Assembly (NCBI GenBank): GCA_963662305.1
Contig: OY759352.1
Coordinates: 349,035 to 413,034 of the forward strand
DNA from: Desulfarculia bacterium
Lineage (GTDB): Bacteria; Desulfobacterota; Desulfarculia; G963662305
Length of the DNA stretch: 64,000 nucleotides
Direction of reading: 5' to 3'
Position numbers and translations under genes: made by a program. The stretch's first letter is position 1, and every line of letters begins with the position of its first letter. Below the pieces are notes generated by a model, which saw nothing but the letters and a program-made list of their open reading frames with translations, ran no database searches and was not told the origin of the DNA. This document shows, one piece after another, positions 15,679-30,675 of this stretch.

Positions 15679-17700
15679 CTATTTTATAACAGGACTGGGG
15701 CGCCCCACGGCCGTGCAGACCAGTTCGGTCCCCAAATAGAGCATCTCCTCAGACCCCCCGCCGATGGGCGCCTGCAGGTCGCGGCGATCCAGGGAAACCT
15801 CCGGGGTTTCCGCTCCGGCCTTGCGGGCCGCCTCCCGGATCCAGGCTTCCATGATCTTGCGGGCCTGAACCACGGCCTCCTCCCTATCCCTGAAATTCAG
15901 AACCTTATCAGGCAGATGGAGCCTGAATCCGCCTTGGTCTTCCAGGGGCTTAATCAGGGCCGTACAGCGGATGATTACCCCTCCCACCACCGCGCCCACG
16001 GCGTTGGCCACCTCGGCCCTGGGCGGAATGACGAGTCTGGTTCGCAGTCTCTCGACCATGGCCGGCCCATAGGCCTCCACCGGAGCGCCGATGGCCACTA
16101 CGGGATGGTTGAGGGTCAGGGAAATGGAGATGTCCCCCTTGCCGTTCCCGTTTTTTGACAAAGCCTTCCTGATCAGGAAGGAATCGATGAGCCCCTTGCC
16201 GGGCTCCTCCCCATCCAGGCCCTCTCCGGCCAGGGCGGCCCGGGCCAGCGCCTCCGCGCCCCCGGCATAGACTCCCTCAATCACCATGCGGGCCAAATCC
16301 TTCGGCTTCAGCCCCACCTGGGCGGCCAAAACAGCCGCACCCGTTTCGGCCGCCTCGGCGGACCACAGGTTCAACCGGCCCAGGGCGTGCAGAGCATCGG
16401 TGGGGGTGAACCCGCAGATGCCGATCAGACGCCTGGCCGCGGCCTGTCGCACCGGCCCCGGCAAAAAGGAGGCCGGCCCGTTCTCCTCCACCAGTCTCTC
16501 CCAGGCCGCCGGACCCTTTTCCAGTATGGCCAGCAAGGCGTCCTCCCAGGAGGAGTTGGTTCTTCTGTTTCCGCCGCCCTGGGGCATGAGAAAGACGGCC
16601 GCTCGGGAGGATCTGATTTTTCTTCTCTTCTGTTTCTTCAACTCTTCAATTATATTGGGATGCTCCAATGCTGCCAGGCACAGAGGGACGACCCTCTCCG
16701 GGCCCAGGCTCAGCTCCCCTCCGGTCTTGAGCTCCACCCGGCTGTCGCCGCCCAGGCCCACGGTCCGGATATCCACTGCCTCCACCATGGTCCGCCAGGG
16801 CCCGACCTGGGCTCCTTTGGGGTTGAGCCGGGGCTGGCCGCCCTTGAGCTGGGCGATGTCGGTGGTAGTACCGCCCATGTCCATCACCCAGAAATTGCCG
16901 TTTCCCTCCTCCCCGACCAAATGCCGGGCCCCGACCACGCTGGCCGCCGGTCCGGAGAGGATGGTCTCAATGGGCCTTTTGGCCGCCCAGGAGGCCTCCA
17001 CCAGGGAGCCGTCGCCCTTGACCACCATTATCTGCCCGCCTATCCCCCTCTGGGCCAGGACATCCCTGACCGAACCGATGAGTTCCCTGATCAGGGGGAT
17101 CAAGCCGGCGTTCAGAGCCACGGTGGTGGCCCGGCGGATGGAGTCCAGCCGGGAGGTCAGCATATGCCCGCAGGTGACCGGAAGACCGCTTAACTCTTCG
17201 AGGATCGCGGCCGCCCTGGTTTCGTGCTCCGGGTTGCGGACCCCGAAGTAGGAGGAAACGCCGAAGGCGTCCACCTTGCCCTTTCGGGAGAACGCCGTCT
17301 CCCGGAGCCCCTTCTCGTCCAGGGGGTGAACCTCCACGCCCTGCGAATCGTGACCGCCGGCCAGATGGATCACATCGTCCACCACCAACGCCCGTTTTAG
17401 TCCGTAGGAGTCTAGCAGGTCCTGGTCGTAACCGACCAGGACCAGACAGACCCGTCCGCCCCTGCCCTCCACAATGGCGTTGGTGGCCAGGGTGGTAGAC
17501 AGGCCGGTGAGAGTTATGGACTCTGGGCCAGGGGCCCCCTCCTGGTTCAGGACGGCATCCACGGCCAAGCCGATGCCCCTGGCGAGGTCGTCGTAGGTGG
17601 TCAGGGACTTGGCCGCAAAAAGAATACGGCCGGCGGCGTGGTCCACCAGGACCGCATCCGTGTAGGTCCCTCCGGTATCTATGCCCAGCAAAACTTCCAT
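15679..17700 (-). CDS. Hydantoinase/oxoprolinase A-family ATP-dependent hydrolase (HyuA-like)
   Basis: 673 aa; N-terminal LLGIDTGGTYTDAVLVD and downstream MDMGGTTTDI (ASKHA ATPase) are hallmark hydantoinase_A motifs. Confidence 0.75.
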   Translation of the reverse strand: MEVLLGIDTGGTYTDAVLVDHAAGRILFAAKSLTTYDDLARGIGLAVDAVLNQEGAPGPESITLTGLSTTLATNAIVEGRGGRVCLVLVGYDQDLLDSYGLKRALVVDDVIHLAGGHDSQGVEVHPLDEKGLRETAFSRKGKVDAFGVSSYFGVRNPEHETRAAAILEELSGLPVTCGHMLTSRLDSIRRATTVALNAGLIPLIRELIGSVRDVLAQRGIGGQIMVVKGDGSLVEASWAAKRPIETILSGPAASVVGARHLVGEEGNGNFWVMDMGGTTTDIAQLKGGQPRLNPKGAQVGPWRTMVEAVDIRTVGLGGDSRVELKTGGELSLGPERVVPLCLAALEHPNIIEELKKQKRRKIRSSRAAVFLMPQGGGNRRTNSSWEDALLAILEKGPAAWERLVEENGPASFLPGPVRQAAARRLIGICGFTPTDALHALGRLNLWSAEAAETGAAVLAAQVGLKPKDLARMVIEGVYAGGAEALARAALAGEGLDGEEPGKGLIDSFLIRKALSKNGNGKGDISISLTLNHPVVAIGAPVEAYGPAMVERLRTRLVIPPRAEVANAVGAVVGGVIIRCTALIKPLEDQGGFRLHLPDKVLNFRDREEAVVQARKIMEAWIREAARKAGAETPEVSLDRRDLQAPIGGGSEEMLYLGTELVCTAVGRPSPVIK

Positions 17701-17947: not shown

Positions 17948-18754
17948 TCAGAGCTCAAACACCTTGGCCCGGTAGGCCTGCAGGTATTTCATGCAGTAAT
18001 CGTCCCGGCCGTCCAAGGCCTCGGCGGCGATGATGGACGCCATCATCCGCTTGTCCAGAGGATTGATGATGGCTCCGTCCAGTCCCTTGGCCACGGCCAT
18101 GGTCATGAAGGTCTGGTTCATAAACTTGCGTTCCGGCAGACCGTAGGAGATGTTGGACAGGCCGCACATGGTGTGGATGCCCGGCCAGCCGGTCATGATC
18201 CGTTCCACCGCTTCCAGAAACTCCACTCCGAAACGGGTGTTGGTGGCCACCGGCTGGACCAGCGGATCTATGTAGATGTTTTCCAGAGCGACGTTGTTTT
18301 TGGTCAACCCCTCGACCAGCTTATCGGCGATCTCCATCCGCTGGTCGGCCGTCTCGGGCATGCCTTCGTCCGACATGCACAGAGCCACAACCTTCAGGTC
18401 AGTCCCGGCGACAACCGGCAGAAGCCGGTCCCAGCGATCTTTTTCCAGGGAGATGGAGTTGATCATGGGCCAGCCGTTCTTGTTGTCGTGAACGGCCAAG
18501 GCGGCTTCCAGGGCGGCAGGATCGGGGCTGTCCAGACAGCAGGGTATCTCCACCACCTCTTGAACCAGTTCCACCAGCCATTTAAGATACTCGGCCTCTT
18601 TATTTACAAATACGCCGGCGTTCACATCGATGTAGGTGGCTCCGGCTTCCGCCTGATCCTTGGCCACTTTTTCCAGGGCGGCCGTATCCTGGGCCTCTAT
18701 GGCCGCTGCTATGGCTTTGCGTGAAGCGTTTATTAACTCTCCGACAATTATCAT
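17948..18754 (-). CDS. Pterin-binding methyltransferase (MtrH/AcsE-like methyl-corrinoid:tetrahydrofolate methyltransferase)
   Basis: 268 aa; pterin-binding TIM-barrel (YIDVNAG...GWPMINSISLE...MCGLSNISYGLPER) typical of MtrH-like corrinoid:THF methyltransferases. Confidence 0.75.
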   Translation of the reverse strand: MIIVGELINASRKAIAAAIEAQDTAALEKVAKDQAEAGATYIDVNAGVFVNKEAEYLKWLVELVQEVVEIPCCLDSPDPAALEAALAVHDNKNGWPMINSISLEKDRWDRLLPVVAGTDLKVVALCMSDEGMPETADQRMEIADKLVEGLTKNNVALENIYIDPLVQPVATNTRFGVEFLEAVERIMTGWPGIHTMCGLSNISYGLPERKFMNQTFMTMAVAKGLDGAIINPLDKRMMASIIAAEALDGRDDYCMKYLQAYRAKVFEL

Positions 18755-18763
18755 TACAAAAAC

Positions 18764-19390
18764 CTAACCTTCCATTAGCCGCCTGGCCAGGGTCACGGCG
18801 CTGGGAGCATCCTCGGAGTACCCGCTGGCCCCGATCTGATCCGCAAAGGCCTTGGTCACCGGGGCTCCGCCGATCATGACCTTGATTCCCAGGCCCTGCT
18901 CCTTAAAAGCGGCCACGGTCTGCTCCATGGCCGGCATGGTGGTGGTCAGCAAAGCCGACAACCCGGCCAGCTCGGCCTTGTTTTCCTGGGCGGCTTTGAC
19001 AAACTTATCCGCATCAACGTCCACGCCCAGATCGATGACATTAAATCCGGCGCCTTCCAACATCATGGCCACCAGGTTTTTGCCGATATCGTGCAAGTCG
19101 CCTTTAACCGTACCCACAACTATCGTTCCGGCTGGTTTGGCGTCTGAATCGGACAACAGGGGGCGAATAACCGCCAGACCGGCCTTCATGGCCTGGGCAG
19201 CCATAAGCATCTCGGGGACAAAAAGAACGCCTTCGGAAAACTTTTTTCCAACCTCGTCCATGGCCCCGATCAAGCCGTCGTTCAATATGGACTGAATGTC
19301 GGTACCAGCATCCAACTCGGTCTGCACTAGGATCGGTACCTCCGCATCCTTGAACTCAATTACTGCTTGATAAATATCCTGTACAGCCAT
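18764..19390 (-). CDS. Cobalamin-binding corrinoid protein (MtmC/MttC/MtgC-like)
   Basis: 208 aa; B12-binding motif VKGDLHDIGKNLV (DxHxxG); N-terminal cap helix domain; GGAPV Rossmann B12 fold. Confidence 0.85.
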   Translation of the reverse strand: MAVQDIYQAVIEFKDAEVPILVQTELDAGTDIQSILNDGLIGAMDEVGKKFSEGVLFVPEMLMAAQAMKAGLAVIRPLLSDSDAKPAGTIVVGTVKGDLHDIGKNLVAMMLEGAGFNVIDLGVDVDADKFVKAAQENKAELAGLSALLTTTMPAMEQTVAAFKEQGLGIKVMIGGAPVTKAFADQIGASGYSEDAPSAVTLARRLMEG

Positions 19391-19468
19391 ATATCACTCC
19401 TCTATCCAAAATAATCGATTCAGCCTTCTTTAAAAAAGGCTCAAGTCGGCCAAGTTCTAGTTATAAAC

Positions 19469-20881
19469 TCACCCTTTAAATTTCGCTACATATTTTTCCA
19501 AATCCCTTTTCAAGGCACCACCCGTCTCCGGCGGCTCATACTCGGCCAGTCTACGCTCTTTCTCCTGTTCAGCCCGGATTCGGGCCGTGGGTCTTCCGGC
19601 CGAATTCCAAGAGTCAAAGTTGTCCCGGCTCATCAATCGGGGATTAAAGAACTCGGTCCGGCACAATTTAAAGGTCTTGGGCTGGGTCAGGTACTGGCCC
19701 CCGATGCCCACCTGCCTGATCATCTCCAGATCGATGGATTCCGGAGTAATTTCCAGGGGTTTTACCATCTTCTTGATCATTCCGGCCAGTTCCTCATCAA
19801 GCATGAACTTTTCAAAGCTCATGGAGATGTAGGAGCCCAGGGTTCCGGCCGTGTGGAGGACGAAGTTGATTCCGGAGCGGACGGCCGTGGAAAGGGCCAG
19901 GGCCGACTCGGCCCCGGCCTGGCCGTCCGGGGTGAGGGAGTCGGTCAAACCTCCGCCGCTACGGCTGGGCAGACGGTAGAAATCGGCCATCCGGGCCGTG
20001 GCCGAAATGTTCTGGGACAACTCGGGTGCGCCGATGGACAGGCCTCCGGTGCGCATATCCATGGCCGAGGAGGTGGAGCCGTAGATCACAGGCGCGCCCG
20101 GCCGGACCGCCTGGGCCAGGCAGATGCCGGCCAGGATCTCGGCGTTCTGAAGGGCCAGGACCCCGGCCAGAGTCACCGGACCGGAGGAGCCGGCCATGAT
20201 CAGGGAGGCCACGCAGCAGGCCTGGCCGGCCCGGGCCAGTTCCATGATGGAACCGGCCATCTCCGAAGAGAACTGCAGGGGTGACAGGGAGTTGCACAAG
20301 GAGACCGTGTAGGCCTCCTCCGTGGCCCTGTCCCCGAAAAGGATTCTAAGCATATCCACGCCCTGGGCCGCGCCCTCTCTGGAAACCGGGCTGCCCATAA
20401 AAGGTTTGTCGCACAACAAAATGGAGGACAGCAGCATGTGCAGATGGGCGGTCCGGGGCGGGACGTCGTGGGGCTCGACCATCATGAACCCGTTCATGTC
20501 CAGGTAGGGCGAGGTCTGGACCAGTTTGCAAAAGTCGTCGTAGTCGGCCATGGCGGCCTGACGCCGGCCGCCATCCGGGGTGGTTACAAAGGGCGCGCCG
20601 TATCCGGGCAGAAGCACGAAATCGTCTCCCCCGATAAAGACGCTTTTCTCCGGGTCGCGGGCCTTTACCCGGAACCGGGAGGGGCAGGTCGCCAGGGCCT
20701 CCCGGATATGGGCCTCCCGGAAAAAGACCTTTTTGCCCTCCACCCGGTGGCCCTTTTTCCTGAATATCTCCAGGGCCTCGTTCTCGTTAAAGGCCACCCC
20801 CGTGTTTGACAGGATGTCCATGGTGGAATCGTGGAGCAGGGAAAGCTCCCCCGGAGTCAGGGTCTGCATCCGATCGGGCAT
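19469..20881 (-). CDS. MttB-superfamily (non-pyrrolysine) quaternary-amine:corrinoid methyltransferase (MtgB-like), copy 1
   Basis: 470 aa TIM-barrel of the trimethylamine methyltransferase family (PF06253-like); no in-frame amber codon, so non-Pyl type. Confidence 0.8.
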   Translation of the reverse strand: MPDRMQTLTPGELSLLHDSTMDILSNTGVAFNENEALEIFRKKGHRVEGKKVFFREAHIREALATCPSRFRVKARDPEKSVFIGGDDFVLLPGYGAPFVTTPDGGRRQAAMADYDDFCKLVQTSPYLDMNGFMMVEPHDVPPRTAHLHMLLSSILLCDKPFMGSPVSREGAAQGVDMLRILFGDRATEEAYTVSLCNSLSPLQFSSEMAGSIMELARAGQACCVASLIMAGSSGPVTLAGVLALQNAEILAGICLAQAVRPGAPVIYGSTSSAMDMRTGGLSIGAPELSQNISATARMADFYRLPSRSGGGLTDSLTPDGQAGAESALALSTAVRSGINFVLHTAGTLGSYISMSFEKFMLDEELAGMIKKMVKPLEITPESIDLEMIRQVGIGGQYLTQPKTFKLCRTEFFNPRLMSRDNFDSWNSAGRPTARIRAEQEKERRLAEYEPPETGGALKRDLEKYVAKFKG

Positions 20882-20905
20882 GGACCGCTCCTGTTGTGGT
20901 AAGGT

Positions 20906-20970
20906 TCAACAATGCGTTCCGCATTTTTGACGGGCCGCCGGGCCAAAACCAGGTTTTGGCCCGGCGGCCC
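20906..20970. repeat. Intergenic two-hairpin repeat element, copy A (same element as 26086-26150)
   Basis: caAATGCGTTCCGCATTTTTGACGGGCCGCCGGGCCAAAACCAGGTTTTGGCCCGGCGGCC: hairpin 1 ATGCG/CGCAT, hairpin 2 GGGCCAAAAC/GTTTTGGCCC; ~85% identical to copy B with compensatory changes; lies between mttB and the DMGDH gene. Confidence 0.75.
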
Positions 20971-20979
20971 TGACAAGGT

Positions 20980-23403
20980 TCAGCCCTTCAGTTTCTCATT
21001 CCGGGGATCATAGAGGGGCATGGGCGCCACCTTGGCCGGGAAGCGCTGATCCAGGATCTCCACCTCCAGGGCCGTGCCCTCCCGGGCCAGTTCCAGCTTG
21101 ATGTAGCCCATGGCCAGGGACTTCTCCACCCGGTGGCCGTAGCCGCCCGAGGAGGTCATGCCCACGTACCGGTCCCCCTTCCAGATGGCGTTGTAGCCGT
21201 AGGCGTCGGCGTTTCCGGCCTGGATCTCCATGAGCACCAGTTTCTGGGGAACGCCCTCCTCCTTCTGCCTGACCAGGGCCTCCTTGCCGATAAATTCCTT
21301 GTCCAGCTTGACCTGCCAGCCGAGCCCGGCCTCCCAGGGGGTGTGGTGGATGTTCAGCTCGCCCTTCCAGGTGCAATACCCCTTTTCCAGGCGCATGGAG
21401 TCCATGGCCCGGATGCCGAACATGCCCAGGGAGAACTCCCGGCCGGCCCCCATGAGCTGGTCGTAGAGGTTGATCTGGCGCTCGATGGGATGAAACAGCT
21501 CGAATCCCAGTTCGCCCACAAAGTTCAGCCTGTTGACCTGGCAGGGGACCTTGTCGATGAGCATTTTCCGAGAGGCGGCAAAGGGGAAGGCCTTGTTGGA
21601 CAGATCCGCGTCAGTCAGCTTCCGGAGGATCTTGCGGGAGTTGGGCCCCGCCAGGACCAGGCAGCCGAACCGGGTGGTCACGTCCAGAAGAGAGACGCTC
21701 TTGTCAGGGGGCAGGTTCAGGATCAGGTGGTGATGGTCGTGGCGCTTGGCCACCGCGGCCGAAACCACCATCCACTGGTTCTCATCCACCTTGGTGCAGG
21801 TCATGTCGCACAGAAAGGCGCCCTCTTCAGTCAGGGCCGGAAAAATGGCGATCTGCCCCACCCGGGCCGGGGCCTTGTTGCAGGAGAGCCTGTTCAGGTA
21901 GGCCTCGGCCCCTTCGCCGGAGACGAGCCACTTGGAGAAGCCGCTCAGATCCAGGAGCCCGGCCGACTCCATGACCATCCGGCATTCCTTTTTCACCGGC
22001 TGGAACCAGTTGGACCTGCGCCAGGAGTCCACGTCCGCGTCCCCGGCCCTGCCCGAGAACCACTGGGGCCGCTCCCAGCCGAAGGTCTCGCCGAAGACCG
22101 CCCCGGCCGCCTTCTGGCGGTCGTAGATGGGCGAAACCTTCATGGGCCGGCCAGCCATGCGCTCCTGAAAGGGGAAGGGCACGGCGTAGAGCCGGGGGTA
22201 GGTGTCGGCCACCTTCTGGGCGTTGTACTCCTTGTTCACGTAGGCCCCGTAGCGCCGGGAGTCGGCCGGCCAGAGGTCGATCCCGGGCTGGCCGTTGATC
22301 ATCCACTCGGCCAGGTACCGGCCGATGCCCCCGGCCTGGGTGATACCGAAGGAGTACCCGCAGCAGAGCCAGAAATTTTTCAGGGGAAAGGCCGGGCCCA
22401 CCAGGGGGTCGCCGTTGGGGGTGTAGGTGATGGGCCCGCAGGTAATATGCTTCAGCCCGGCGTGCTCCATGATGGGGAAGCGGTTTATGCAGGCCTCCAC
22501 ATAGGGGGTGATCCGCTCCAGGTCCGTGGGGCACTCGCTCTGGGACCAGTCCCAGGGCACCCCCTCGGGGTGCCAGGGCACGGCCACGTTTTCGTACATG
22601 CCCAGGATAAAGGAGTCCATCTCCTGACGGAAGTAGATGGACAGGTCCGGATCCCGGACCAGGGGGAAGTGGTTCCCCGCTTTTTTGCGCTCCTCCGCAT
22701 CCGGAATCTTCTCGAACAGGATGTGGTGGTGCTCGCAGGGCAGGGAGGGGATCTCCAGCCCCACCATGGCCCCCACCTCCGGGGCCCACAGCCCCCCGGC
22801 GTTGACCACGTGCTCGCAGGTGATGTCCCCCTTGTCCGTGTGGACCACCCACTCGCCCGAGGGGTTCTGGGTGATGCCGGTGACCATGGTGAAGCGGTGG
22901 ATCTCCGCCCCTTGCTGGCGGGCCCCGATGGCCAGGGCCTGGGTCATGCCGCTGGGGTCCACGTCTCCGTCGTCCGGGTGCCACAACGCGCCCAGGACGC
23001 CCTCCGTGTTGATCAGGGGATGAAGCTTCCTGATCTCCTCTGGGCCGACCATCTCCACGTTCAGCCCCAGGCACTTGTCCTTGGTGCAGTTGTAGCGGAG
23101 TTCGTCCATGCGGTCCTGGGTGGTGGCCAGGCGCAAGGCGCCGGTGGTGTGCCAGCCCGTGGACTGCCCGGTCTCCTCCTCCAGGGCCTGGTAGAGTTCC
23201 ACGGACCACATCTGGACCTTGGCCTCGTAATAGTTGGGGTGGTAGAAAGAGCAGTTGCCTGCGGCCAACCAGGTGGAGCCGGAGGTCAGCTCGTTTTTTT
23301 CGATCAGGACCACATCGTTCCAGCCGAACCTGGCCAGGTGATAAAGAACGCCGCAGCCTATTGCTCCGCCGCCGATGACCACAACGCGGGCGTGGGTTTT
23401 CAT
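20980..23403 (-). CDS. Dimethylglycine/sarcosine dehydrogenase-family flavoprotein (FAD DAO domain plus C-terminal GcvT-like folate-binding domain)
   Basis: ~807 aa from the internal Met (MKTHARVVVIGGGAIGCG, GxGxxG) preceded by a GGAGG RBS; C-terminal aminomethyltransferase (T-protein) folds. The ORF-track start at 23493 is a 5' extension. Confidence 0.85.
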   Translation of the reverse strand: MKTHARVVVIGGGAIGCGVLYHLARFGWNDVVLIEKNELTSGSTWLAAGNCSFYHPNYYEAKVQMWSVELYQALEEETGQSTGWHTTGALRLATTQDRMDELRYNCTKDKCLGLNVEMVGPEEIRKLHPLINTEGVLGALWHPDDGDVDPSGMTQALAIGARQQGAEIHRFTMVTGITQNPSGEWVVHTDKGDITCEHVVNAGGLWAPEVGAMVGLEIPSLPCEHHHILFEKIPDAEERKKAGNHFPLVRDPDLSIYFRQEMDSFILGMYENVAVPWHPEGVPWDWSQSECPTDLERITPYVEACINRFPIMEHAGLKHITCGPITYTPNGDPLVGPAFPLKNFWLCCGYSFGITQAGGIGRYLAEWMINGQPGIDLWPADSRRYGAYVNKEYNAQKVADTYPRLYAVPFPFQERMAGRPMKVSPIYDRQKAAGAVFGETFGWERPQWFSGRAGDADVDSWRRSNWFQPVKKECRMVMESAGLLDLSGFSKWLVSGEGAEAYLNRLSCNKAPARVGQIAIFPALTEEGAFLCDMTCTKVDENQWMVVSAAVAKRHDHHHLILNLPPDKSVSLLDVTTRFGCLVLAGPNSRKILRKLTDADLSNKAFPFAASRKMLIDKVPCQVNRLNFVGELGFELFHPIERQINLYDQLMGAGREFSLGMFGIRAMDSMRLEKGYCTWKGELNIHHTPWEAGLGWQVKLDKEFIGKEALVRQKEEGVPQKLVLMEIQAGNADAYGYNAIWKGDRYVGMTSSGGYGHRVEKSLAMGYIKLELAREGTALEVEILDQRFPAKVAPMPLYDPRNEKLKG

Positions 23404-23532
23404 GATTTGAACCTCCTCAGGCTGTATTCCAAAAATTAGCGAGCCGACCCTATATCCGCCGATACGGCAACCGGCCTTGATCCGTCTATCCAAGCCGATC
23501 CAGGATATCGGCTTTCCGGTTTGGGGCTGCTG

Positions 23533-23964
23533 TCAGATTCCGCAGGCCTTCTCCGGCCTGATCACCAAAACGGGTTTTTTAGATCTGCGGATGACCCGGT
23601 CGACCACGCTGCCCAGGGCCCACCGGGTCAGGCCCCCGTGACCGTGGGTGGTCATAACCACCACCGTGGCGTATTTTTCGGCGTGGTCCAGGATCTCCGT
23701 GGCCGCATCTCCCAGTCTGACATGAGTGGAGACTTCCAATCCCTTGGCGCGCAGGTCCGCCGCCATTTTTTCCAGATATTTTTCGGAACGCTCCACCGCC
23801 TCGAGTTCCATTTTCTTGTTTTCGGATCCCGGAAAGGGGTAAAAAAAGGCGACCCGCAGCAGCATAATCCGGCCTTTGTTGACCCGGGCCAGGTCCTCCA
23901 CCTGGCACAGCGTCTCCTCGGCCATCCTGGAACCGTCCAGGGGAACCAAAATTTTTGAGAACAT
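23533..23964 (-). CDS. Universal stress protein (UspA family)
   Basis: 143 aa; ILVPLDGS...VVMTTHGHGGLTRWALGSV...VLVIRP, the UspA ATP-binding fold. Confidence 0.85.
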   Translation of the reverse strand: MFSKILVPLDGSRMAEETLCQVEDLARVNKGRIMLLRVAFFYPFPGSENKKMELEAVERSEKYLEKMAADLRAKGLEVSTHVRLGDAATEILDHAEKYATVVVMTTHGHGGLTRWALGSVVDRVIRRSKKPVLVIRPEKACGI

Positions 23965-23979
23965 GGACTCTCCTCGGCC

Positions 23980-25011
23980 CTAAGACCTTCTTGAATCTTT
24001 TGGGTTCAAACCGACCATGAACCGCCAAAACGGGCTTTTGGGACTGGTCAGGTATTTTTGGTAGATGGTGGCCACGCCGCCGGGGTAGTAGATCATGACC
24101 ACGATCAGGACCAGACCGTAGATGACCAGATGGATTCCCGGCAGGTTGGAGAATCCGGAACGGATCAGCTCCATGGCGATCAGGAAGGGAATGGCGATCA
24201 AGGGACCGCCCCACAGGGTGCCCCGGCCGCCGATGTAGGCCACGGCCAGAATCTCCACGGTCTTGGAGGTATGCATGTAATCAGGGGTCAGGATGCCGAT
24301 GTAGTGGGCGTAGAATCCTCCCAGCCAGCCGGCCAGGGCGCAGGAGACGGTGAAGTTGAAGATCCGGTATCCCACCGGGTTTATTCCTGAAGTACGGGCC
24401 GCCTCCATGTTCTGGCCGATGGCCCGGAAGGCCAGCCCCATGTTGGACCTGGTGATCCAGCGGCAGATGACGAAGGTGACCACCATCATGATCAGGGCCA
24501 CATAGAAATAGGGAACGTTGGAGGGCGTGTCAAAGAGCTGGGGGGCCCTGAGCCCCAGCATGCCCCGGGTCATGGGAACCCACTTCTGGGCGATGCCCAT
24601 GAGCGACAGGCCGATGAACCAGGTCACCAGGGCGGCGAAAATGCCCCTGTGACGCAGGGTCAGCAATCCGGTCAGGAACCCCAGTATCGCCGCGCTTACG
24701 GCCCCCACGAACATGCCCGCCCAGGGGGTCAGCCCCAGCCGCACGGCCAGGATGGCCGAGGTGTACCCGCCCAGCCCGGCGATGGCGTTGAAGCCGAAAT
24801 TGACGATGTTGATGAATCCCACCGAGAGGTCAAAGGCGATGGCCGAGGCGGCGATGATGATGGCTATGGTTATCCAGCGGATCAGATACTCCTGGGGCAG
24901 AAACAGGGGCGCCAGGGCCAGAATGATCAGCCCGGCCAAGGCCAGCGGAGTAAGGCAGAGCTTGTCCAGAACCCAGCTGAAAGGATTCAGAGTCGATTTA
25001 TTGGTCTCCAT
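23980..25011 (-). CDS. livM: Branched-chain amino acid-type ABC transporter permease (LivM-like)
   Basis: 343 aa polytopic; typical LivM/BPD_transp_2 core. Confidence 0.8.
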   Translation of the reverse strand: METNKSTLNPFSWVLDKLCLTPLALAGLIILALAPLFLPQEYLIRWITIAIIIAASAIAFDLSVGFINIVNFGFNAIAGLGGYTSAILAVRLGLTPWAGMFVGAVSAAILGFLTGLLTLRHRGIFAALVTWFIGLSLMGIAQKWVPMTRGMLGLRAPQLFDTPSNVPYFYVALIMMVVTFVICRWITRSNMGLAFRAIGQNMEAARTSGINPVGYRIFNFTVSCALAGWLGGFYAHYIGILTPDYMHTSKTVEILAVAYIGGRGTLWGGPLIAIPFLIAMELIRSGFSNLPGIHLVIYGLVLIVVMIYYPGGVATIYQKYLTSPKSPFWRFMVGLNPKDSRRS

Positions 25012-25030
25012 TTTCTCTCCCCTGCCGCGC

Positions 25031-26053
25031 TTACTGGTCCAAGACGCCGCGGACCTCGGTGCCGAAGATTCCGCTGGGCTTGACGATCAGAACCAGGATT
25101 ATGAGGGCCGTGGGAACCACGTACTCCCAGCCGCTGCCGATATATTCAAGGGTCAGGACCCGGGCCAGGCCCACCAGGAAACCGCCCATGAGGGCTCCCA
25201 GGACATTGCCCAATCCCACCAGGATGACCACAAACCAGGCCATGTAGAGCGGCTCCATGCCCACCGTGGGATAGGTGGGGTAGAGAAACAGCAGGCTCCC
25301 TCCGGCCACCGCGGCCAGGGCGCAACCGATGGCCATGGTCAGCATGGTCACATTGTCCAGGGGGATGCCCACCATCAGGGCCCCGGTCTCGTCCTGGCTG
25401 ACCGCCCGGATGGCCCGCCCGGTTCTGGTCTTGCCCATGAACAGCCAGAACAGGATGATGAGAACCAGGGAGAGCAGCACCGCGAAGATCCTGTCCCGGG
25501 AGACAAAGGCTCCAAAAAAATCTACGGGCGCACCGGTGTAATAGCGGCTGATGCCCTTGAACTCTACTCCCAGGACCATCTGATGGAGGTTGATCAGAAC
25601 CACCGAAACCCCCACGGTCAGGAGAAAGGAGTTCATGACCCAGTTCTGCCTGGCTCTTTTTCGAAGCGGCCTGATGGCCAGCACCTCGGTCAGGGCTCCG
25701 GCCGCCGCTCCGGCCAGCAGGGCCGCAAAGATGGCGATGAGCGGGACGAGCAGGGCGAAAAAGGAACCAGGGGCGGCCGCCCCCTCCAGGGTCTTGAAGA
25801 CCGCGTAGGCGGCCAGCCCTCCGATCATGAAGTACTCGCCGTGGGCGAACTGAGGGATGTTCAACACCCCGAAGACCATGGCCAGGCCCACCGAGATCAG
25901 GGCCAGCATTCCCCCCAGAACAATGGTGTTTACCAGGATATAGGGTCCCCGGTCGATGGTGCAGACCACGGTCAGGACCAAGGCCACCAGAACCGTAATC
26001 CCGGCCGCGGTCCTGAACCAGTCAAAAAGTCTTTGAAACAGCGCTGTCAGCAT
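25031..26053 (-). CDS. livH: Branched-chain amino acid-type ABC transporter permease (LivH-like)
   Basis: 340 aa polytopic; LivH-like BPD_transp_2. Confidence 0.8.
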   Translation of the reverse strand: MLTALFQRLFDWFRTAAGITVLVALVLTVVCTIDRGPYILVNTIVLGGMLALISVGLAMVFGVLNIPQFAHGEYFMIGGLAAYAVFKTLEGAAAPGSFFALLVPLIAIFAALLAGAAAGALTEVLAIRPLRKRARQNWVMNSFLLTVGVSVVLINLHQMVLGVEFKGISRYYTGAPVDFFGAFVSRDRIFAVLLSLVLIILFWLFMGKTRTGRAIRAVSQDETGALMVGIPLDNVTMLTMAIGCALAAVAGGSLLFLYPTYPTVGMEPLYMAWFVVILVGLGNVLGALMGGFLVGLARVLTLEYIGSGWEYVVPTALIILVLIVKPSGIFGTEVRGVLDQ

Positions 26054-26085
26054 TTAGTCGCCCTCCGGAGCCGCGTCTTATAATA

Positions 26086-26150
26086 AGTTTCAAAAATACG
26101 TTCCGTATTTTTGACGGACCGCCCGGCCAAAAACGTGGTTTTGGCCCGGC
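26086..26150. repeat. Intergenic two-hairpin repeat element, copy B
   Basis: caAAAATACGTTCCGTATTTTTGACGGACCGCCCGGCCAAAAACGTGGTTTTGGCCCGGC; hairpin 1 ATACG/CGTAT is a compensated variant of ATGCG/CGCAT in copy A; between livH and livF. Confidence 0.75.
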
Positions 26151-26231
26151 TCACGGTCGCTTTGCGACCGGCGGCCCGTTACCGGCCCGCTTAGAGCGAT
26201 TGTCGCTTAAAGCATATTTCCGACAACCGCT

Positions 26232-26939
26232 CTAGACCCCCAAAAAGACCTTGCGCACATGGGGGTCCTCGGCCAGATTGCTGCTGGCCCCTTCCAGTTC
26301 GACCCGCCCGTTCTCCAGGACATAGCCCCGGGAGGTGAACTGGAGAGTTTTAATCACGTTCTGCTCCACCACCAGGATGGTCAAACCGTCCTTGTTGAGC
26401 CTGGACAGGGCGGCGAAGACGCCATCGGTCAGGTTGGGGGCCAGGCCGAAAGAGGGTTCGTCCACCAAAAGCAGCTTGGGGTCGGGCATCAACCCCCGGC
26501 CGATCCCCAGCATCTTCCTCTCCCCCCCGCTCATGGTCCCGGCCAGTTGGTTGCGCCTCTCCTCCAGCCGGGGGAAAAGCTCGTAGACTATGTCCAGGCG
26601 GTCCCTGATAACCTTTTTATCCTTGATGGTGTAGGCTCCCATGAGCAGGTTCTCGTGGACCGACATGTTGACGAACAGATTCATCTCCTCGGAGATGTAG
26701 CTGATGCCCTTGCGGCAGACCTTGTTGCCGGGCATTCCGGCCACATTCTCACCCCGGAATTTGACCTCTCCGCTCAGGGGCGATACCAGGCCGCTGATGG
26801 TTTTCAGGGTGGTGGACTTGCCGGCGCCGTTGGGGCCGATAAGGCAGACGTACTCTCCCTCGTCCACCTTCAGGCAGACATCCCTGAGGATCTGGAGGAA
26901 TCCATAACCCGCGTTCAGGTTGGTTACTTCGAGTAACAA
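26232..26939 (-). CDS. livF: ABC transporter ATP-binding protein (LivF-like)
   Basis: Walker A GPNGAGKST, signature SGGERKML, Walker B LLLVDEPS. Confidence 0.88.
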   Translation of the reverse strand: MLLEVTNLNAGYGFLQILRDVCLKVDEGEYVCLIGPNGAGKSTTLKTISGLVSPLSGEVKFRGENVAGMPGNKVCRKGISYISEEMNLFVNMSVHENLLMGAYTIKDKKVIRDRLDIVYELFPRLEERRNQLAGTMSGGERKMLGIGRGLMPDPKLLLVDEPSFGLAPNLTDGVFAALSRLNKDGLTILVVEQNVIKTLQFTSRGYVLENGRVELEGASSNLAEDPHVRKVFLGV

Positions 26940-27020
26940 TTGGGCCTCCGTTCAAACCGGGCCCCGCTTCTCCCGCTTTCCGCCTTCAGGGGGCGGACCG
27001 GAGAGTTCGGGTCTCCCTAA

Positions 27021-27740
27021 TCAGGCTTCAGAACCAAGGTATGCTTCGGCCACTTTCGGATCCCGGGCCACCTCTTCGGTGGGGCCGTCGGCAATCTTGG
27101 AACCGAAATTGATCACCACCAGACGGCTGCAGACGTTCATGATCAGCTGCATGATGTGCTCAACCATCAGGATGGTTATCTCCCGTTCTTGTATTTTATT
27201 TATTATCTTAATAATATCCGTCAGCTCCCCGGTGGACAGGCCGGCCGCCAGCTCATCCATGAACAGGACCTTGGGATGGCTGGCCAAGGCCCTGGCCAGA
27301 TCCAGCCTTTTGAGCTGAACCGTGTTCAGGCTTTCGCAAATGGTGTCCTCCGGGACCGGAAACTCCACAAACTCCAGCAACTCCCGGCTCAGGGCGTAGG
27401 GATTTTTGACCTTTTCCTTGTTGCCGAAGATGGCCGCGGTGAGAACATTCTCCAGGCTGGTCATCTTGGGAAAAGGCCGGGGAATCTGAAAGGTCCGTGA
27501 CAGGCCTCTCCGGCACATCCTTTCAGGCGCCAGCCCGGTGGAGTCCCGGCCCAAAAAGCTGACCCGGCCCGAGGTGGGCGAATTCAATCCGGCGATGGCG
27601 TTAAGCAAGGTGGTCTTTCCGGCCCCGTTGGGCCCGATCAGCCCCACGATCTCGCCCTGGGCCACGTGCATGTTTACTTTATTGACGGCGATCAGACCGC
27701 CGAATCTCTTAGTGACGTTTTCAGTCTCTATGACATTCAT
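27021..27740 (-). CDS. livG: ABC transporter ATP-binding protein (LivG-like)
   Basis: Walker A GPNGAGKTT, signature LSTGE, Walker B LFMDEL; likely starts at internal MNVIETENVTKRFGG. Confidence 0.85.
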   Translation of the reverse strand: MNVIETENVTKRFGGLIAVNKVNMHVAQGEIVGLIGPNGAGKTTLLNAIAGLNSPTSGRVSFLGRDSTGLAPERMCRRGLSRTFQIPRPFPKMTSLENVLTAAIFGNKEKVKNPYALSRELLEFVEFPVPEDTICESLNTVQLKRLDLARALASHPKVLFMDELAAGLSTGELTDIIKIINKIQEREITILMVEHIMQLIMNVCSRLVVINFGSKIADGPTEEVARDPKVAEAYLGSEA

Positions 27741-27886
27741 ATAACCGCCTTGGCTGATGATCGAAGACTGTTTCAATGAGGCGGGCGGAAAGCTCCCCCG
27801 GATGCCGACCGCCTGCCTTGGACGACCCTTCTGATGATCGCCGATTCCGGCCCCGGGATTAACCCGGAAGCCGGAAATGCGCTTGC

Positions 27887-29155
27887 TTATTTGGGAGCCA
27901 CGAATTTACCCGTGGCCATGGCATCGGGGTAGATGGAGATGATCTGGCCGCCCATGTACTGGGTCACCGGGAAGAAGTAGTGATCCGGGCCCAGAACCGG
28001 ATCGGGGTTGGTCTCGGGAGTGTACTTGTACTCCTTCATCATGATGATGCCGTCTTTTTGGGTAAAGGACATCTTGCCGGTGTAGACCTCCTCCACCAGG
28101 GTCTTGTGGATGGACTCGGAGTCCAGCTTGCCGTCCCGCTCAAAGGTTCTCTGCAAAACCTTGGTGAAGATGGTGAAGCCGTCGTAGGACAGACCCGAGG
28201 CCGGAGCGGAGGGTATGAAGCCGAACTTCTTCTCCTTGGCCGCGGCAAACTCCTTGGCCGCCTTGGTGGCGAACATGGTCTGAACGTCCAGGACCCCGTC
28301 CGAGGCGGCGCCCACCAGCTTGTACCAGTCGCCCACCCAGGACAGGCCGTTGGCAAAGAAGAGGGCCTGCTTGTTCAGGCCCACCTCGGCGTATTGCTTG
28401 ACCAGGCCGGTCATGGACGGGGCCGAGGTGGTGGTGCCGCCGATAAAGGAGACCCCGGATTTCTTCCACTTGGACAAAAGCGGGTAGAAATCGGTCTGCT
28501 TGAGGTCAAAATATTCCTCGCTGACGATCTCCCAGCCGTCGGCGGTCAGGGACTTTTTCAGGTTCTCGCCGGCGTTGCGGCCCCAGTCGGTCTCCTCGCC
28601 GAAGATGGCCGCCTTTTTGGCCTCGGGCTTCCACTGTCCGGCGTCCATGATGCTCTTCAGAAAAGAGGCCATGCCCTTGGCCTCCAGGCCGCCGGGTACG
28701 GGCCAGCCCTTGATTCCCCAGTAGGAATACTTTTTGGGGTCCTCGCGCCATTTGGTCACCACGGGCTGGGCCGCGCCCATGCCGTACATCCAGGGCACCT
28801 TGTACTGGGCGGCCAGGTCCATGCAGGCGATGGCCACGGATGAGTGCCAGTTGATGGCTCCGGCCACGATCCCCTTGCGCTCGCAAGCCTCGGCAAAGGC
28901 GGAGGTGGCCTTGGCCGGGTCGGACTGGGAGTCCACCCAGACTATCTCCAGGGTATAATCGCCGATCTTGCCGCCGATCTTTTCCATGACCATCTGAACC
29001 GAGGTCTTGAACTCGTTTCCAGCCTTGGCGGATGGCCCGGTAAAGGGACCCATGACCCCCACCTTCAGGACCTTTTCGGCCATGGCCTGGCCGGAGAAGA
29101 CAAAAAGTGAGATGGCGATGGCAAAGACCATCAGATAACGCGCTCTCCCGTTCAT
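27887..29155 (-). CDS. Periplasmic substrate-binding protein, LivK/Leu-Ile-Val-binding (type I PBP) family; ligand unknown
   Basis: Signal peptide MNGRARYLMVFAIAISLFVFSGQAMA then a type I periplasmic binding fold; ATG at 29155 preceded by GGAGG; first gene of the minus-strand operon. Confidence 0.8.
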   Translation of the reverse strand: MNGRARYLMVFAIAISLFVFSGQAMAEKVLKVGVMGPFTGPSAKAGNEFKTSVQMVMEKIGGKIGDYTLEIVWVDSQSDPAKATSAFAEACERKGIVAGAINWHSSVAIACMDLAAQYKVPWMYGMGAAQPVVTKWREDPKKYSYWGIKGWPVPGGLEAKGMASFLKSIMDAGQWKPEAKKAAIFGEETDWGRNAGENLKKSLTADGWEIVSEEYFDLKQTDFYPLLSKWKKSGVSFIGGTTTSAPSMTGLVKQYAEVGLNKQALFFANGLSWVGDWYKLVGAASDGVLDVQTMFATKAAKEFAAAKEKKFGFIPSAPASGLSYDGFTIFTKVLQRTFERDGKLDSESIHKTLVEEVYTGKMSFTQKDGIIMMKEYKYTPETNPDPVLGPDHYFFPVTQYMGGQIISIYPDAMATGKFVAPK

Positions 29156-29359
29156 AAAACCCTCCTTCTCTTGGTTATTCCCCAATAATACAATTAGTTT
29201 TTTGCATCACCCTCACCCAAAAACCAAGCCTCGCCTGTTCACCTCCTGTTCTGTACCGTCCAGGCCGGCGGCCTATCTGATTTTTTTAGAGTTCGACCCA
29301 GCAGGTGGAGGCCGGCCCGTGACCCGAATGGGCCGGCCTTGTAATTAAAAGTTAAAGTG

Positions 29360-30675
29360 TTAACCGTTAACCGAAAAACTTGAATCAGGGTTGATCTTCC
29401 GCTTGCGGGAGTAGAACCCCACATCGATGCTGTACCCGGTGTACTTCATCTTGAACTGGAGCGGATCCTTGTCGTGGTCCAGACCCTCTTTTTCCACCTG
29501 GTTGATCAATTCGGCCATCATGGCCCCCACCACCGGGGCGTTCTTGTACTGGTTGCCCGAGGTGCCGATGGCCAGGTAGAAACCGCCCAGATCGGTCTTG
29601 TCGTAGATGGGGATCCAATCGTCGGAGCAGTCGTACAGATCGGCTATCCCCAATTGCTTGTTGGGTATCTTCAGGGAGGGGATGCGCCTGGCCAGGCGGT
29701 AGACCTGGGCCTTGTACTGGGCGTCGGTTATGTTGCGGTTGAAGTTGTCCGGATCCGAGATCCACTCCTGTTTGTCGCAGTCCGGATCTTCGGAGCCCAC
29801 CAGGATCATGTTGCCCACCTCGGGCCGGAAATAGATGGAGTTGTCGCCGTCCGAGGTGTGGTACCCGTTGTTCAGAAAGTCGAACCCCTCGGGCGAGGGC
29901 ACATGATGGACTTCGTGGCGCAGGGCCTTGGTCTTGATGTTCATCCCCTCCAGAACGCCCTCGGCCATGGCATTGACCACAAAGGAGTGGGGCCCGGCCG
30001 CATTGACCACAATGGGCGCGTCGATCCGGGTTCCGTCCTTAAGGGTCACCCCGGCCACCCTGCCGTTTTCGGAGCGGATATCCACCACCTCGGCCTTGAA
30101 CATGAACTCGCCGCCCTTGTTTTCCGCGGCCCGCTGGAGATTGTGGGTGGAAAGCTGGGGTCGTTCACATACCCTCCGCCCGGGCAGAAAACGCAACCTT
30201 CCACCTCGCCCTTGGGTTCGGTGAAGTTGTCGTCCTCCTCGGGACGGGAGGGCGGCCAGAATTCACCGTGGGAGTAGATGGCGATATGTTTATCCAGATC
30301 GTCCAGGGTCCATTCTTCATATTCCACGCCTACTGCGTCGTAATGCTTGACCACCTTTTTCCAGTCGTGCCCCTTGGACTTGATCAGAATGGAGCCGGTG
30401 TTGCGGTACTCGGCCAAACCGCTTTCATCCTGGCATTCCAGGTAGGCGGCCCAGTCAGACCAGTATTTGAAGCCCTCGTAAGCCATGGCCACGCCGTCCT
30501 GGGTGGAGTAGTGGGCCCGGACAATGGCGCAGGAGTTGGAGGTGGAACCGTATCCGCTGGTGGGAAGTTTGTCGATGTTGAGCGTCTTGTAGCCTTTTTT
30601 AGCCAGTTCAAACCCGATGGAAGCCCCGATGATCCCAGCGCCGATGATTACGGCGTCGTACTTCTTGTTTGCCAT
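29360..30675 (-). pseudogene. FAD-dependent oxidoreductase (DadA/sarcosine-oxidase-beta-like) interrupted by a frameshift at a C4 run (~30160)
   Basis: N-terminal ORF 30046-30675 (MANKKYDAVIIGAGIIG...GGGYVNDP) and C-terminal ORF 29360-30196 (...QLSTHNLQRAAENKGGEFMFKAEVV...) are consecutive parts of one DAO-family protein in different frames; adding one C to gaCCCCag restores a continuous reading frame. Confidence 0.7.

Follow-up and report, generated by a model that had tools for sequence, protein, structure and literature searches.

The 64-kb stretch analysed here, hereafter the window, is taken from contig OY759352.1 of a Desulfarculia bacterium and carries a minus-strand operon in which the genes of a Liv-type ATP-binding cassette (ABC) importer are joined to those of a MtgB-like methyltransferase, a corrinoid protein, a pterin-binding methyltransferase, and a flavoprotein of the dimethylglycine dehydrogenase (DMGDH) family. 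Going by its gene content, the island probably serves an anaerobic bacterium of the Desulfobacterota type in the breakdown of glycine betaine and of the N-methylglycines formed from it, a reading that draws its support from homology, diagnostic residues, and conserved synteny. Genes were assigned from a listing of open reading frames (ORFs) followed by profile searches against Pfam and NCBIfam; functions are read from homology and synteny, and all coordinates are window positions.

Genes of the operon

The ORF listing gives an unbroken run of minus-strand ORFs from 17948 to 29185. Read in the direction of transcription, that is, from the high coordinates downward, the ten genes are as follows.

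27887-29155 (ORF to 29185), minus strand: periplasmic substrate-binding protein (SBP), a divergent Peripla_BP_6 member (139 bits) and candidate receptor for glycine betaine or methylated glycines
27021-27776, minus strand: LivG-type ABC ATPase (ABC_tran and BCA_ABC_TP_C)
26232-26939, minus strand: LivF-type ABC ATPase (ABC_tran; LivF model 227 bits, below cutoff)
25031-26053, minus strand: LivH/UrtB-type ABC permease (BPD_transp_2)
23980-25011, minus strand: LivM/UrtC-type ABC permease (BPD_transp_2)
23533-23964, minus strand: universal stress protein (USP) with a single Usp domain (Pfam Usp, 97 bits)
20980-23403 (ORF to 23493), minus strand: DMGDH-family flavoprotein with a flavin adenine dinucleotide (FAD) domain and folate-binding GcvT domains (DAO, FAO_M, GCV_T, GCV_T_C)
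19469-20881, minus strand: MtgB-like, non-pyrrolysine methyltransferase of the MttB superfamily, predicted glycine betaine:corrinoid methyltransferase (PF06253, similarity to MtgB, and the residue signature Y-R-H-Y)
18764-19390, minus strand: corrinoid protein of the MtgC/MttC type (B12-binding_2 and B12-binding; GDLHDIG)
17948-18754, minus strand: predicted MtgA-like methylcorrinoid:tetrahydrofolate methyltransferase of the MeTr/AcsE pterin-binding family (Pterin_bind, NF005719)

All ten lie on the minus strand and have the expected domains, which bears out the co-oriented operon proposed at these coordinates in the initial annotation. That annotation had counted eleven genes between 17948 and 29155; the eleventh co-oriented gene, which encodes a DAO-family flavoprotein (29360-30675), stands just beyond the edge of this interval. 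The upper boundary had been well placed, since 29155 is the real start of the SBP, where an ATG follows GGAGG and a signal peptide comes next. The junctions, described earlier as short or overlapping, are indeed short (9-178 nt; from the pterin methyltransferase end 9, 78, 98, 129, 15, 19, 178, 81, and 110 nt), but none of them is an overlap. The unit is also larger than first noted, adding the DAO-family gene, which is frameshifted, a gene for a hydantoinase-A-like protein, and a divergent cluster of DAO-family, MtgB-paralog, ferredoxin, and formaldehyde:ferredoxin oxidoreductase (FOR)-like genes.

The methyltransferase gene is an uninterrupted ORF of 470 codons with no in-frame amber codon, and the MTTB TIM-barrel domain (PF06253, 472.7 bits) occupies its full length (residues 4-467). 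The best comparison is with MtgB of Desulfitobacterium hafniense (2QNE/9YCE), which aligns end to end at 443 bits and 46% identity; the Sinorhizobium (S. meliloti) homolog 4YYC scores 303 bits and the pyrrolysine-containing trimethylamine methyltransferase MttB of Methanosarcina (7XCL) 188 bits. The identity of a true trimethylamine MttB was rejected, because the protein scores 332 bits against the pyrrolysine-MttB model TIGR02369, below the cutoff of 525, and far higher against MtgB than against pyrrolysine MttB. The original placement among the non-pyrrolysine enzymes is thus upheld, and the protein is best regarded as MtgB-like.

A more discriminating guide to substrate is provided by the glycine-betaine contacts. 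Mutants of D. hafniense MtgB and a structure with bound ligand showed the substrate to be gripped by Y97 and F356 through cation-pi contacts and by R312 and H348 at its carboxylate, and changing F356 to Tyr (F356Y) left the kinetics at the wild-type level (Picking et al. 2026, PMC13080624). The enzymes for carnitine, proline betaine, phosphocholine, and gamma-butyrobetaine do not conserve the aromatic pair (the paper names MtcB, MtpB, MthB, and MtyB); proline betaine is turned over by D. hafniense MtgB only about 300-fold more slowly, and dimethylglycine is not a substrate (PMC13080624).

Once a two-residue offset in the numbering of the PDB chain had been corrected, Y97/R312/H348/F356 were found to align with Y/R/H/Y in the operon copy. 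Among all MttB-family ORFs of the loci fetched from related genomes and metagenomes, the 51 that most resemble D. hafniense MtgB (39-55% identity; the two window copies are among them) carry Y-R-H-[Y/F], three of them with Asp in place of H348. The signature was absent from all 16 of the more distant MttB paralogs, which have unrelated residues at these positions (e.g., SFHG, PFHG, and GSLS).

The corrinoid protein has a B12-binding_2 cap and a B12-binding Rossmann domain, with the DxHxxG motif present as GDLHDIG. Its best NCBIfam match is the glycine-betaine-specific MtgC model NF047996 (197 bits, cutoff 370), and it is also below cutoff for NF047995 (170 bits, cutoff 310) and TIGR02370 (192 bits, cutoff 215); by these scores it appears to be the same kind of protein as MtgC, yet outside the narrow curated models. 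The third member of the triad had been called MtrH-like. It should instead be recorded as a MeTr/AcsE-type pterin-binding methyltransferase, with 355.5 bits against NF005719 (above the cutoff of 259) and 75 bits against PF00809 (Pterin_bind); Pfam at E<=0.001 listed Pterin_bind and a weak CdhD match solely, with no MtrH-family match. Taken together, the three genes can be read as a MtgB/MtgC/MtgA-type glycine betaine:tetrahydrofolate methyltransferase system.

The DMGDH-family assignment held up in the domain search, which recovered a real four-domain homolog with GcvT domains. Translation probably begins at Met31 of the ORF, giving 20980-23403, because the homologs are 805-809 aa long and an AGGAGG ribosome binding site precedes that ATG. 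The protein scores 633 bits against rat DMGDH (4P9S) over its full length, 625 bits against human DMGDH (5L46), and 350 bits against Arthrobacter dimethylglycine oxidase (DMGO, 1PJ5), with which it shares the four-domain architecture. Residues H225 and Y259 of DMGO, which we take to be the catalytic pair, and D552, presumably the folate-site acid, align with identical residues in the window protein.

One position sets the protein apart. The histidine that binds FAD covalently (STWHAAG in rat DMGDH, His48 in DMGO) is replaced by leucine (STWLAAG), and the column holds Met or Leu in all 119 motif-covering members of the 120 nearest homologs (58-88% identity). An exhaustive search with clustering at 50% gave 116 full-length family representatives, 104 of them with His at this column; Met is found in the two that most resemble the window protein (identities of 59% and 49%). 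The loss of the FAD-linking histidine therefore appears as a property of a whole DMGDH clade, one that is tied to MtgB in Desulfobacterota, and a plausible consequence is a flavin that is bound non-covalently, has a lower potential, and would suit electron transfer in an anaerobic chain. The clade is a common one: the 120 nearest clusters (90% identity) all belong to it, many are metagenomic, and some have more than 100 member sequences. Cluster membership led to no cultured strain that carries the clade, the names being solely at the level of metagenome-assembled genomes. The automatic JGI name of the homologs is "dimethylglycine dehydrogenase."

The importer has the complete HAAT (Liv/Urt-type) architecture, with two BPD_transp_2 permeases, two ATPases, and a Peripla_BP_6 protein. 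By their domains the membrane and ATPase components are ordinary HAAT-family parts. The SBP is an equivalog of neither LivJ/K (48.9 bits, cutoff 477) nor UrtA (27.2 bits, cutoff 492.75). Its orthologs in seven related loci (52-90% identity) share nine invariant tryptophans, and the window protein has 12 in 422 residues, a richness that is suggestive of the aromatic cages of betaine-binding proteins. Going by synteny, the ligand would be glycine betaine, dimethylglycine, or sarcosine. A HAAT-type partner is unusual in this setting, since published mtgB clusters use OpuD/BCCT, ProVWX, or OpuABC transporters (PMC8547467, PMC9768040).

Gene order in relatives and flanking genes

A scan with the MttB-family protein, limited to one genome per species, returned 55 loci, almost all from Desulfobacterota (Thermodesulfobacteriota, Desulfobacterales, Desulfosarcina, Desulfococcus). 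The best match, L001, has the whole operon in the same order, upstream DAO gene included, at 56-79% identity; over L001 and L056 together, both of which keep the window gene order, the range is 56-90%. Members of the DMGDH clade were located in 11 loci from Desulfobacterota genomes and unclassified metagenome contigs (L056, L057, L058/L059, L140, L141, L142, L001, L016, L018, L023, and L033), and in all 11 an MtgB-clade gene lies within 10 kb of the DMGDH gene. An orthologous Liv-type transporter is present in eight of them. The orders can be sub-divided into three types.

Type A (window, L001, L056, L057, L142): DAO-SBP-LivGFHM-(USP)-DMGDH-MtgB, then corrinoid protein and pterin methyltransferase except in L142
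Type B (L058, L140, L141): (AOR or DAO2)-AP_endonuc_2-MtgB-corrinoid protein-pterin methyltransferase-SBP-LivGFHM-DMGDH-EtfB-EtfA-Fe-S/CCG oxidoreductase-YbaK, where AOR stands for aldehyde:ferredoxin oxidoreductase
Type C (L016, L018, L023, L033): MtgB-DMGDH-EtfB-EtfA

The USP gene keeps its position in L001, L057, and L142 and is absent in L056. In the type C loci whose contigs continue (L018 and L033), the genes for the Fe-S/CCG oxidoreductase, pterin methyltransferase, and corrinoid protein come next. That the same parts are kept together while their order changes speaks strongly for MtgB, the Liv-type transporter, and DMGDH acting in one pathway, and for a coupling that is functional and not accidental.

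The relatives also point to an electron acceptor. EtfB and EtfA, the subunits of electron-transfer flavoprotein (ETF), are encoded directly downstream of DMGDH in seven of the 11 loci (L016, L018, L023, L033, L058, L140, and L141; among type C loci the assignment was checked by Pfam in L018 only), which suggests ETF as the acceptor of DMGDH. Membrane-bound ETF-oxidising enzymes of the ETF:menaquinone oxidoreductase type are known from fatty-acid oxidation in anaerobic syntrophic and sulfate-reducing Deltaproteobacteria. The Fe-S/CCG protein of the relatives, of about 670 aa, combines 4Fe-4S motifs and two CCG domains with an N-terminal part predicted to cross the membrane three to four times, as would fit such enzymes, and its place in the gene order suggests that it re-oxidises the ETF of DMGDH.

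Upstream of the type C cluster in L018 there is a divergent SoxB-SoxD-SoxA-SoxG-like set together with YbaK, DAO, and ETF-like genes, and the ORF layout is the same in L016 and L033 as far as their contigs reach. The presence of a separate SoxBDAG-like set is consistent with DMGDH acting on dimethylglycine.

In L142 the place of the corrinoid and pterin genes after MtgB is taken by a second MttB paralog and a gene of the enolase superfamily (MR_MLE). Such a further paralog beside an MR_MLE gene is found at L057:17549-21642, where there is also a DAO gene, and at L142:13995-16648; the L057 paralog has the non-glycine-betaine signature LFHG. The enolase superfamily includes proline betaine epimerases, and these gene pairs may represent a system for a different betaine.

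On either side of the operon the following genes are found.

15679-17700, minus strand: hydantoinase-A/MutL-like ASKHA protein, 673 aa (Pfam Hydant_A_N, Hydantoinase_A, and MutL)
29360-30675, minus strand: DAO-family amine-oxidising flavoprotein, 438 aa when repaired (DAO domain; intact orthologs)
30773-31483, minus strand: GntR/FCD-family regulator (Pfam GntR and FCD; same position filled in L056)
31749-32651, minus strand: xylose-isomerase-like TIM-barrel protein (Pfam AP_endonuc_2)
32711-33484, minus strand: second GntR/FCD-family regulator (Pfam), divergent from the DAO2 cluster
33647-34846, plus strand: DAO2, a SoxB/ThiO-like FAD amine oxidoreductase with no folate domain (Pfam DAO, 181.8 bits)
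35037-36458, plus strand: second MtgB-like paralog (PF06253, 459 bits)
36455-36853, plus strand: poly-[4Fe-4S] ferredoxin (Pfam)
36854-38752, plus strand: tungsten-type aldehyde:ferredoxin oxidoreductase, closest to formaldehyde:ferredoxin oxidoreductase (AFOR_N and AFOR_C)

In the DAO-family gene that heads the operon, a C run near 30156 is one base short and the reading frame is interrupted; this may be an assembly error or a recent inactivation (pseudogene). The ortholog in L056 is intact, at the same position, and 90% identical; those in L001, L057, and L142 are 69-80% identical. Intact proteins of 437-438 aa were called in L056, L057, and L142, and the L001 ortholog lies inside an uninterrupted ORF. 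Orthologs adjoin the MtgB-DMGDH cluster in L018 and L033 as well. The gene has weak similarity to glycine, sarcosine, and N-methyltryptophan oxidases.

The AP_endonuc_2 gene is a conserved member of the neighbourhood, with homologs directly upstream of MtgB in L058, L140, and L141 (48-76% identity). DAO2, which has weak soxB and ThiO matches, has a 59% identical ortholog at the head of the L058 cluster; since it has no folate domain, N-demethylation by DAO2 would free formaldehyde. The second MtgB paralog is 57% identical to the operon copy and 42% to D. hafniense MtgB and keeps Y-R-H-Y. The oxidoreductase at 36854-38752 has Pyrococcus furiosus FOR (1B25) as its best solved relative, at 493 bits versus 424 bits for AOR (1AOR). 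The type B clusters of L140 and L141 also have an AOR-family gene close upstream: a 66% identical ortholog in the first and, in the second, an AFOR_C gene cut at the locus edge. The divergent cluster as a whole (33647-38752) has no corrinoid protein or pterin methyltransferase of its own and would therefore have to share those of the operon; more speculatively, it could be a formaldehyde-detoxifying or energy-conserving branch.

At the other end of the operon, the hydantoinase-A-like gene follows the pterin methyltransferase gene after a gap of 247 nt, and an Asp/Glu-racemase-like gene (14727-15461) comes after it. Its homologs lie directly after the pterin methyltransferase in L056 (79% identity over the available 107 aa) and L057 (53%); in L140, L141, and two Spirochaete loci, L042 and L043 (34-46%), they adjoin an MttB-family gene or are found near one. 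A metagenome scan with the single sequence gave no relative, whereas an alignment query did; 18 of the 80 metagenomic relatives so obtained (L060-L139) adjoin corrinoid, pterin, or MttB genes, among them five of the six closest full-length relatives (>=48% identity). In L141, a contig of the Desulfobacterota type, the protein is fused to DUF1638 in one ORF of 933 aa (18718-21516).

DUF1638, together with RamA, has been predicted to take part in recharging cobalamin reductively (PMC12478193). In strain DCMF, a 668-aa "Unknown" protein encoded between MtgB and MtgA showed a 2^7.2-fold higher abundance with glycine betaine than with dichloromethane (Holland et al. 2022, PMC9768040), and the legend of the figure of the glycine betaine cluster of that strain includes "HydA, hydantoinase" (PMC9768040). 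Synteny, the DUF1638 fusion, and the published proteomics lead us to hypothesise that the hydantoinase-A-like protein is an ATP-dependent accessory or chaperone in corrinoid (re)activation. A RamA/RACo homolog was considered and rejected, as the protein has no ferredoxin-type cysteine (Fe-S) motif and no RACo Pfam domains.

Predicted pathway and competing explanations

If the genes work together as their arrangement suggests, catabolism might proceed as follows. The Liv/HAAT-type importer, with its divergent, Trp-rich SBP, would take up glycine betaine, dimethylglycine, or sarcosine, as synteny suggests. The MtgB-like enzyme would pass a methyl group from glycine betaine to the Co(I) corrinoid protein and leave dimethylglycine, as predicted by homology and by the four of four contact residues; the pterin-binding methyltransferase, whose family membership is above the curated cutoff, would then move the methyl group to tetrahydrofolate.

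The DMGDH-type flavoprotein would convert dimethylglycine to sarcosine, delivering the one-carbon (C1) unit to tetrahydrofolate through its GcvT domains and the electrons to ETF, which would be re-oxidised by the membrane Fe-S/CCG oxidoreductase; these two partners are found beside DMGDH in the relatives only. The methyl- and methylene-tetrahydrofolate would feed the C1 oxidation pathway of the organism. More speculatively, sarcosine could be converted to glycine by DMGDH itself or by the neighbouring DAO-family flavoproteins, and the FOR-like tungsten enzyme, working with ferredoxin, could oxidise any formaldehyde set free. The hydantoinase-A-like protein would probably help to keep the corrinoid protein active. 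An anaerobic setting is indicated by the aldehyde:ferredoxin oxidoreductases, pyruvate:ferredoxin-type enzyme, and ferredoxin of the window, and by relatives among Thermodesulfobacteriota, Desulfobacterales, and Desulfosarcina.

Several points weigh against this scheme and should be kept in mind. No RamA/RACo-type activase was found in the 64-kb window, which has no ETF, ETF-oxidising enzyme, or SoxABDG homolog; homologs of the Fe-S/CCG oxidoreductase, YbaK, and DUF1638 are likewise absent from it. The best local candidate for the step after sarcosine, the DAO-family gene at 29360-30675, is frameshifted in this assembly, and the SBP is without an informative solved relative (best PDB match 60 bits). 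The His-less DMGDH clade may differ from characterised DMGDH in substrate or redox behaviour. Most Desulfosarcina-type MtgB loci hold the MtgB, corrinoid, and pterin genes with no DMGDH nearby, so that the DMGDH extension is limited to a subset. Cultured Desulfobacterium strains are reported to stop at dimethylglycine (cited in PMC6716910). The weakest links of the scheme appear to be the sarcosine-to-glycine step, the electron acceptor in this genome, and the ligand of the transporter.

The transporter is also where the strongest competing explanation begins. The island might mainly scavenge dimethylglycine or sarcosine excreted by methanogens, acetogens, and Desulfobacterium-type sulfate reducers, with the Liv importer serving these compounds and the MtgB module either an add-on or supplied with glycine betaine by another transporter. 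We consider this unlikely, though it has points in its favour: the importer belongs to the amino-acid/urea HAAT family and not to the known betaine ABC, BCCT, or ProP families, the published mtgB clusters depend on OpuD, ProVWX, or OpuABC as mentioned earlier, and in L058, L140, and L141 it is DMGDH, not MtgB, that directly adjoins the transporter. On the other hand, the transporter genes and MtgB stay linked through all of the rearrangements that contain them, and the nine invariant tryptophans of the SBP, suggestive as they are, recall quaternary-amine cages. Scavenging overlaps with the predicted breakdown of glycine betaine and does not exclude it.

It is improbable that the MttB-family enzyme acts on some other betaine or methylated amine (proline betaine, beta-alanine betaine, or another carboxy-betaine), with the DMGDH-like enzyme oxidising the matching tertiary amine. 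In favour of this, the MttB superfamily has diverse specificities that overall similarity does not by itself reveal (PMC13080624), the DMGDH clade departs from its family in having no FAD-linking His, and L057 and L142 carry that second MttB paralog beside an MR_MLE gene. Yet all four glycine-betaine-contacting residues are kept, including an aromatic pair that is not conserved in MtcB, MtpB, MthB, and MtyB; proline betaine is the roughly 300-fold slower substrate of D. hafniense MtgB; and within the same loci, paralogs that bear other signatures stand clearly apart.

Least probable is a further example of the Roseobacter-type MtgBCD(E) system of aerobic marine bacteria, in which demethylation would serve methionine synthesis and catabolism with an aerobic DMGDH: although marine Alpha-, Gamma-, and Deltaproteobacteria (SAR324) often have genes for later demethylation steps close to mtgBCD (PMC12478193), no homocysteine-binding or MtgE-type gene turned up among the approximately 50 larger window ORFs scanned, the best NCBIfam matches of the corrinoid protein are MtgC and methyltransferase-cognate corrinoid models (all below cutoff), the MtgB is nearer to that of D. 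hafniense (443 bits) than to the S. meliloti homolog (303 bits), the neighbours include tungsten aldehyde:ferredoxin oxidoreductases and ferredoxin, the relatives are Desulfobacterales and Desulfosarcina, and the DMGDH does not have the covalent-FAD histidine typical of the whole family.

The island that we propose for glycine betaine shares parts with known systems and also differs from them. Mammalian and bacterial DMGDHs work with ETF, and in the relatives of the window the ETF genes adjoin DMGDH; unlike the classical enzymes, those of this clade have Leu or Met in place of the covalent-FAD His, and the ETF-oxidising partner in the relatives would be the membrane Fe-S/CCG protein, not ETF:quinone oxidoreductase. 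A gene similar to the membrane Fe-S/CCG ETF-oxidising enzymes of Deltaproteobacteria follows etfBA in these relatives, and there is none in the window.

Dimethylglycine is the end product in D. hafniense. Its MtgB/MtgC/MtgA system (Ticak et al. 2014) has the same three components as the window triad, with the MtgB 46% identical and the four glycine-betaine residues shared, and forms dimethylglycine from glycine betaine (PMC8547467). Unlike that system, the window triad sits with DMGDH, a Liv/HAAT importer, USP, and DAO-family flavoproteins, with no RamA-type activase nearby. The MtgBCD(E) systems of marine aerobes (Ruegeria pomeroyi, SAR116, SAR324, and SUP05; PMC12478193) share the B12-dependent glycine betaine demethylase, often near later demethylation genes; they have a CmuA-like MtgC, a link to methionine synthesis, a BCCT (OpuD) transporter, and recharging by RamA and DUF1638, whereas the window cluster combines the anaerobic type of MtgB and a ferredoxin/tungsten-enzyme context with the His-less DMGDH clade and a HAAT-type transporter.

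Anaerobic demethylation past dimethylglycine has been proposed for acetogens, namely "Ca. Formimonas warabiya" DCMF, Sporomusa ovata (strain An4), and "Ca. Frackibacter" (PMC9768040). Their route would employ methyltransferases for dimethylglycine and then a selenoprotein sarcosine reductase, with BCCT transporters and no DMGDH/ETF.

It had been suggested earlier that a complete route in one operon was undescribed for anaerobic MttB systems. This stands in so far as the literature searched gave no explicit description of an anaerobic pathway from MtgB to DMGDH, with or without ETF; it needs qualifying, in that related co-location (PMC12478193) and other routes (PMC9768040) have been published. 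DMGDH and soxB appear, without discussion, in a figure legend of mtgB cluster types from cold-seep contigs (PMC8547467), and three further papers (PMC9324843, PMC10826368, and PMC8042283) have no bearing on MtgB-DMGDH coupling. The modules, then, are known; what is new is their combination in anaerobic Desulfobacterota with a His-less DMGDH clade, a HAAT-type SBP, a hydantoinase-like/DUF1638 accessory, and a FOR-like enzyme.

A wider proposal, which we put forward tentatively as somewhat short of likely, is that strictly anaerobic Desulfobacterota take no fewer than two, and perhaps all three, of the methyl groups off glycine betaine by means of MtgB, the His-less (non-covalent FAD) DMGDH, electron flow from ETF to the Fe-S/CCG enzyme, a new class of Liv-type SBPs for quaternary or methylated amines, and a hydantoinase-like/DUF1638 module that would replace or complement RamA. 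Few osmolytes of marine and saline sediments are more abundant than glycine betaine, and it is a major source of methane, formed via trimethylamine or by direct demethylation. In the accepted view Desulfobacterium, Desulfitobacterium, Acetobacterium, and Methanolobus excrete dimethylglycine (PMC6716910, PMC8547467), which is still treated as the end product for sulfate reducers in the literature searched (PMC6716910).

The conserved cluster of MtgB and DMGDH/ETF genes in Desulfobacterota offers a concrete route, open to testing, for the oxidation of two or three methyl groups by sulfate reducers, and such oxidation would draw carbon and electrons off methanogenesis. If the proposal is true, dimethylglycine is no dead end of anaerobic betaine demethylation, and sulfate reducers would be a complete sink for betaine methyls in sediments. 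Three biochemical leads follow: a DMGDH lineage without covalent flavinylation, a Liv-family SBP likely to serve methylated amines, and a hydantoinase-like candidate component of corrinoid reactivation with a DUF1638 fusion in one relative.

Intergenic elements and remaining genes

Two of the gaps within the operon hold copies of a tandem two-hairpin repeat.

20905-20970, minus strand: copy 1, in the DMGDH/MtgB gap (RNA minimum free energy -49.4 kcal/mol, z -7.2)
26085-26150, minus strand: copy 2, in the LivF/LivH gap (RNA minimum free energy -29.5 kcal/mol, z -4.4)

The element is about 67 nt long and has exactly two copies in the 64-kb window, both of them intergenic, alike in orientation, and 82% identical. 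Their RNA folds are much more stable than those of shuffled controls, and one stem pair has a compensatory change (ATACG/CGTAT versus ATGCG/CGCAT). Close relatives do not have the repeat in these gaps, their LivF/LivH gap being only 24-27 nt (L056 and L057). Its core motif had no match in the 142 fetched loci, and it should therefore not be called a conserved regulatory site. A REP/MITE-like insertion (repetitive extragenic palindrome or miniature inverted-repeat transposable element), an element that stabilises or processes mRNA, and a partial terminator are all possible.

A strong palindrome at about 14625-14691, downstream of the racemase-like gene, gives terminator-like matches on both strands and is probably a bidirectional terminator that closes the minus-strand unit. 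The sole Rfam match in this part of the window, a sub-threshold "mir-5595" on both strands at 14633-14688, was rejected as a microRNA, being a palindrome with matches on both strands. No cobalamin or glycine riboswitch was found by Rfam at a permissive threshold over 13.5-39.5 kb, and sigma-70 promoter-like sites were not enriched (4 observed versus 5.8 expected in shuffled sequence).

Beyond this palindrome, at 8765-10792 on the minus strand, there is another aldehyde:ferredoxin oxidoreductase gene, divergent from genes for an FrhB/FdhB-like Fe-S protein and a thiamine pyrophosphate-dependent 2-oxoacid:ferredoxin-oxidoreductase-like protein; the redox genes of this region (8765-13952) support an anaerobic lifestyle. 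On the far side of the FOR-like gene, 39125-62986 is a polysaccharide and cell-envelope region, apparently unrelated to the betaine island, with genes for a sulfotransferase, several glycosyltransferases, PMT_2-like membrane proteins, an epimerase, an asparagine synthase, B12-binding radical SAM enzymes, and a Wzm/Wzt-type ABC exporter.

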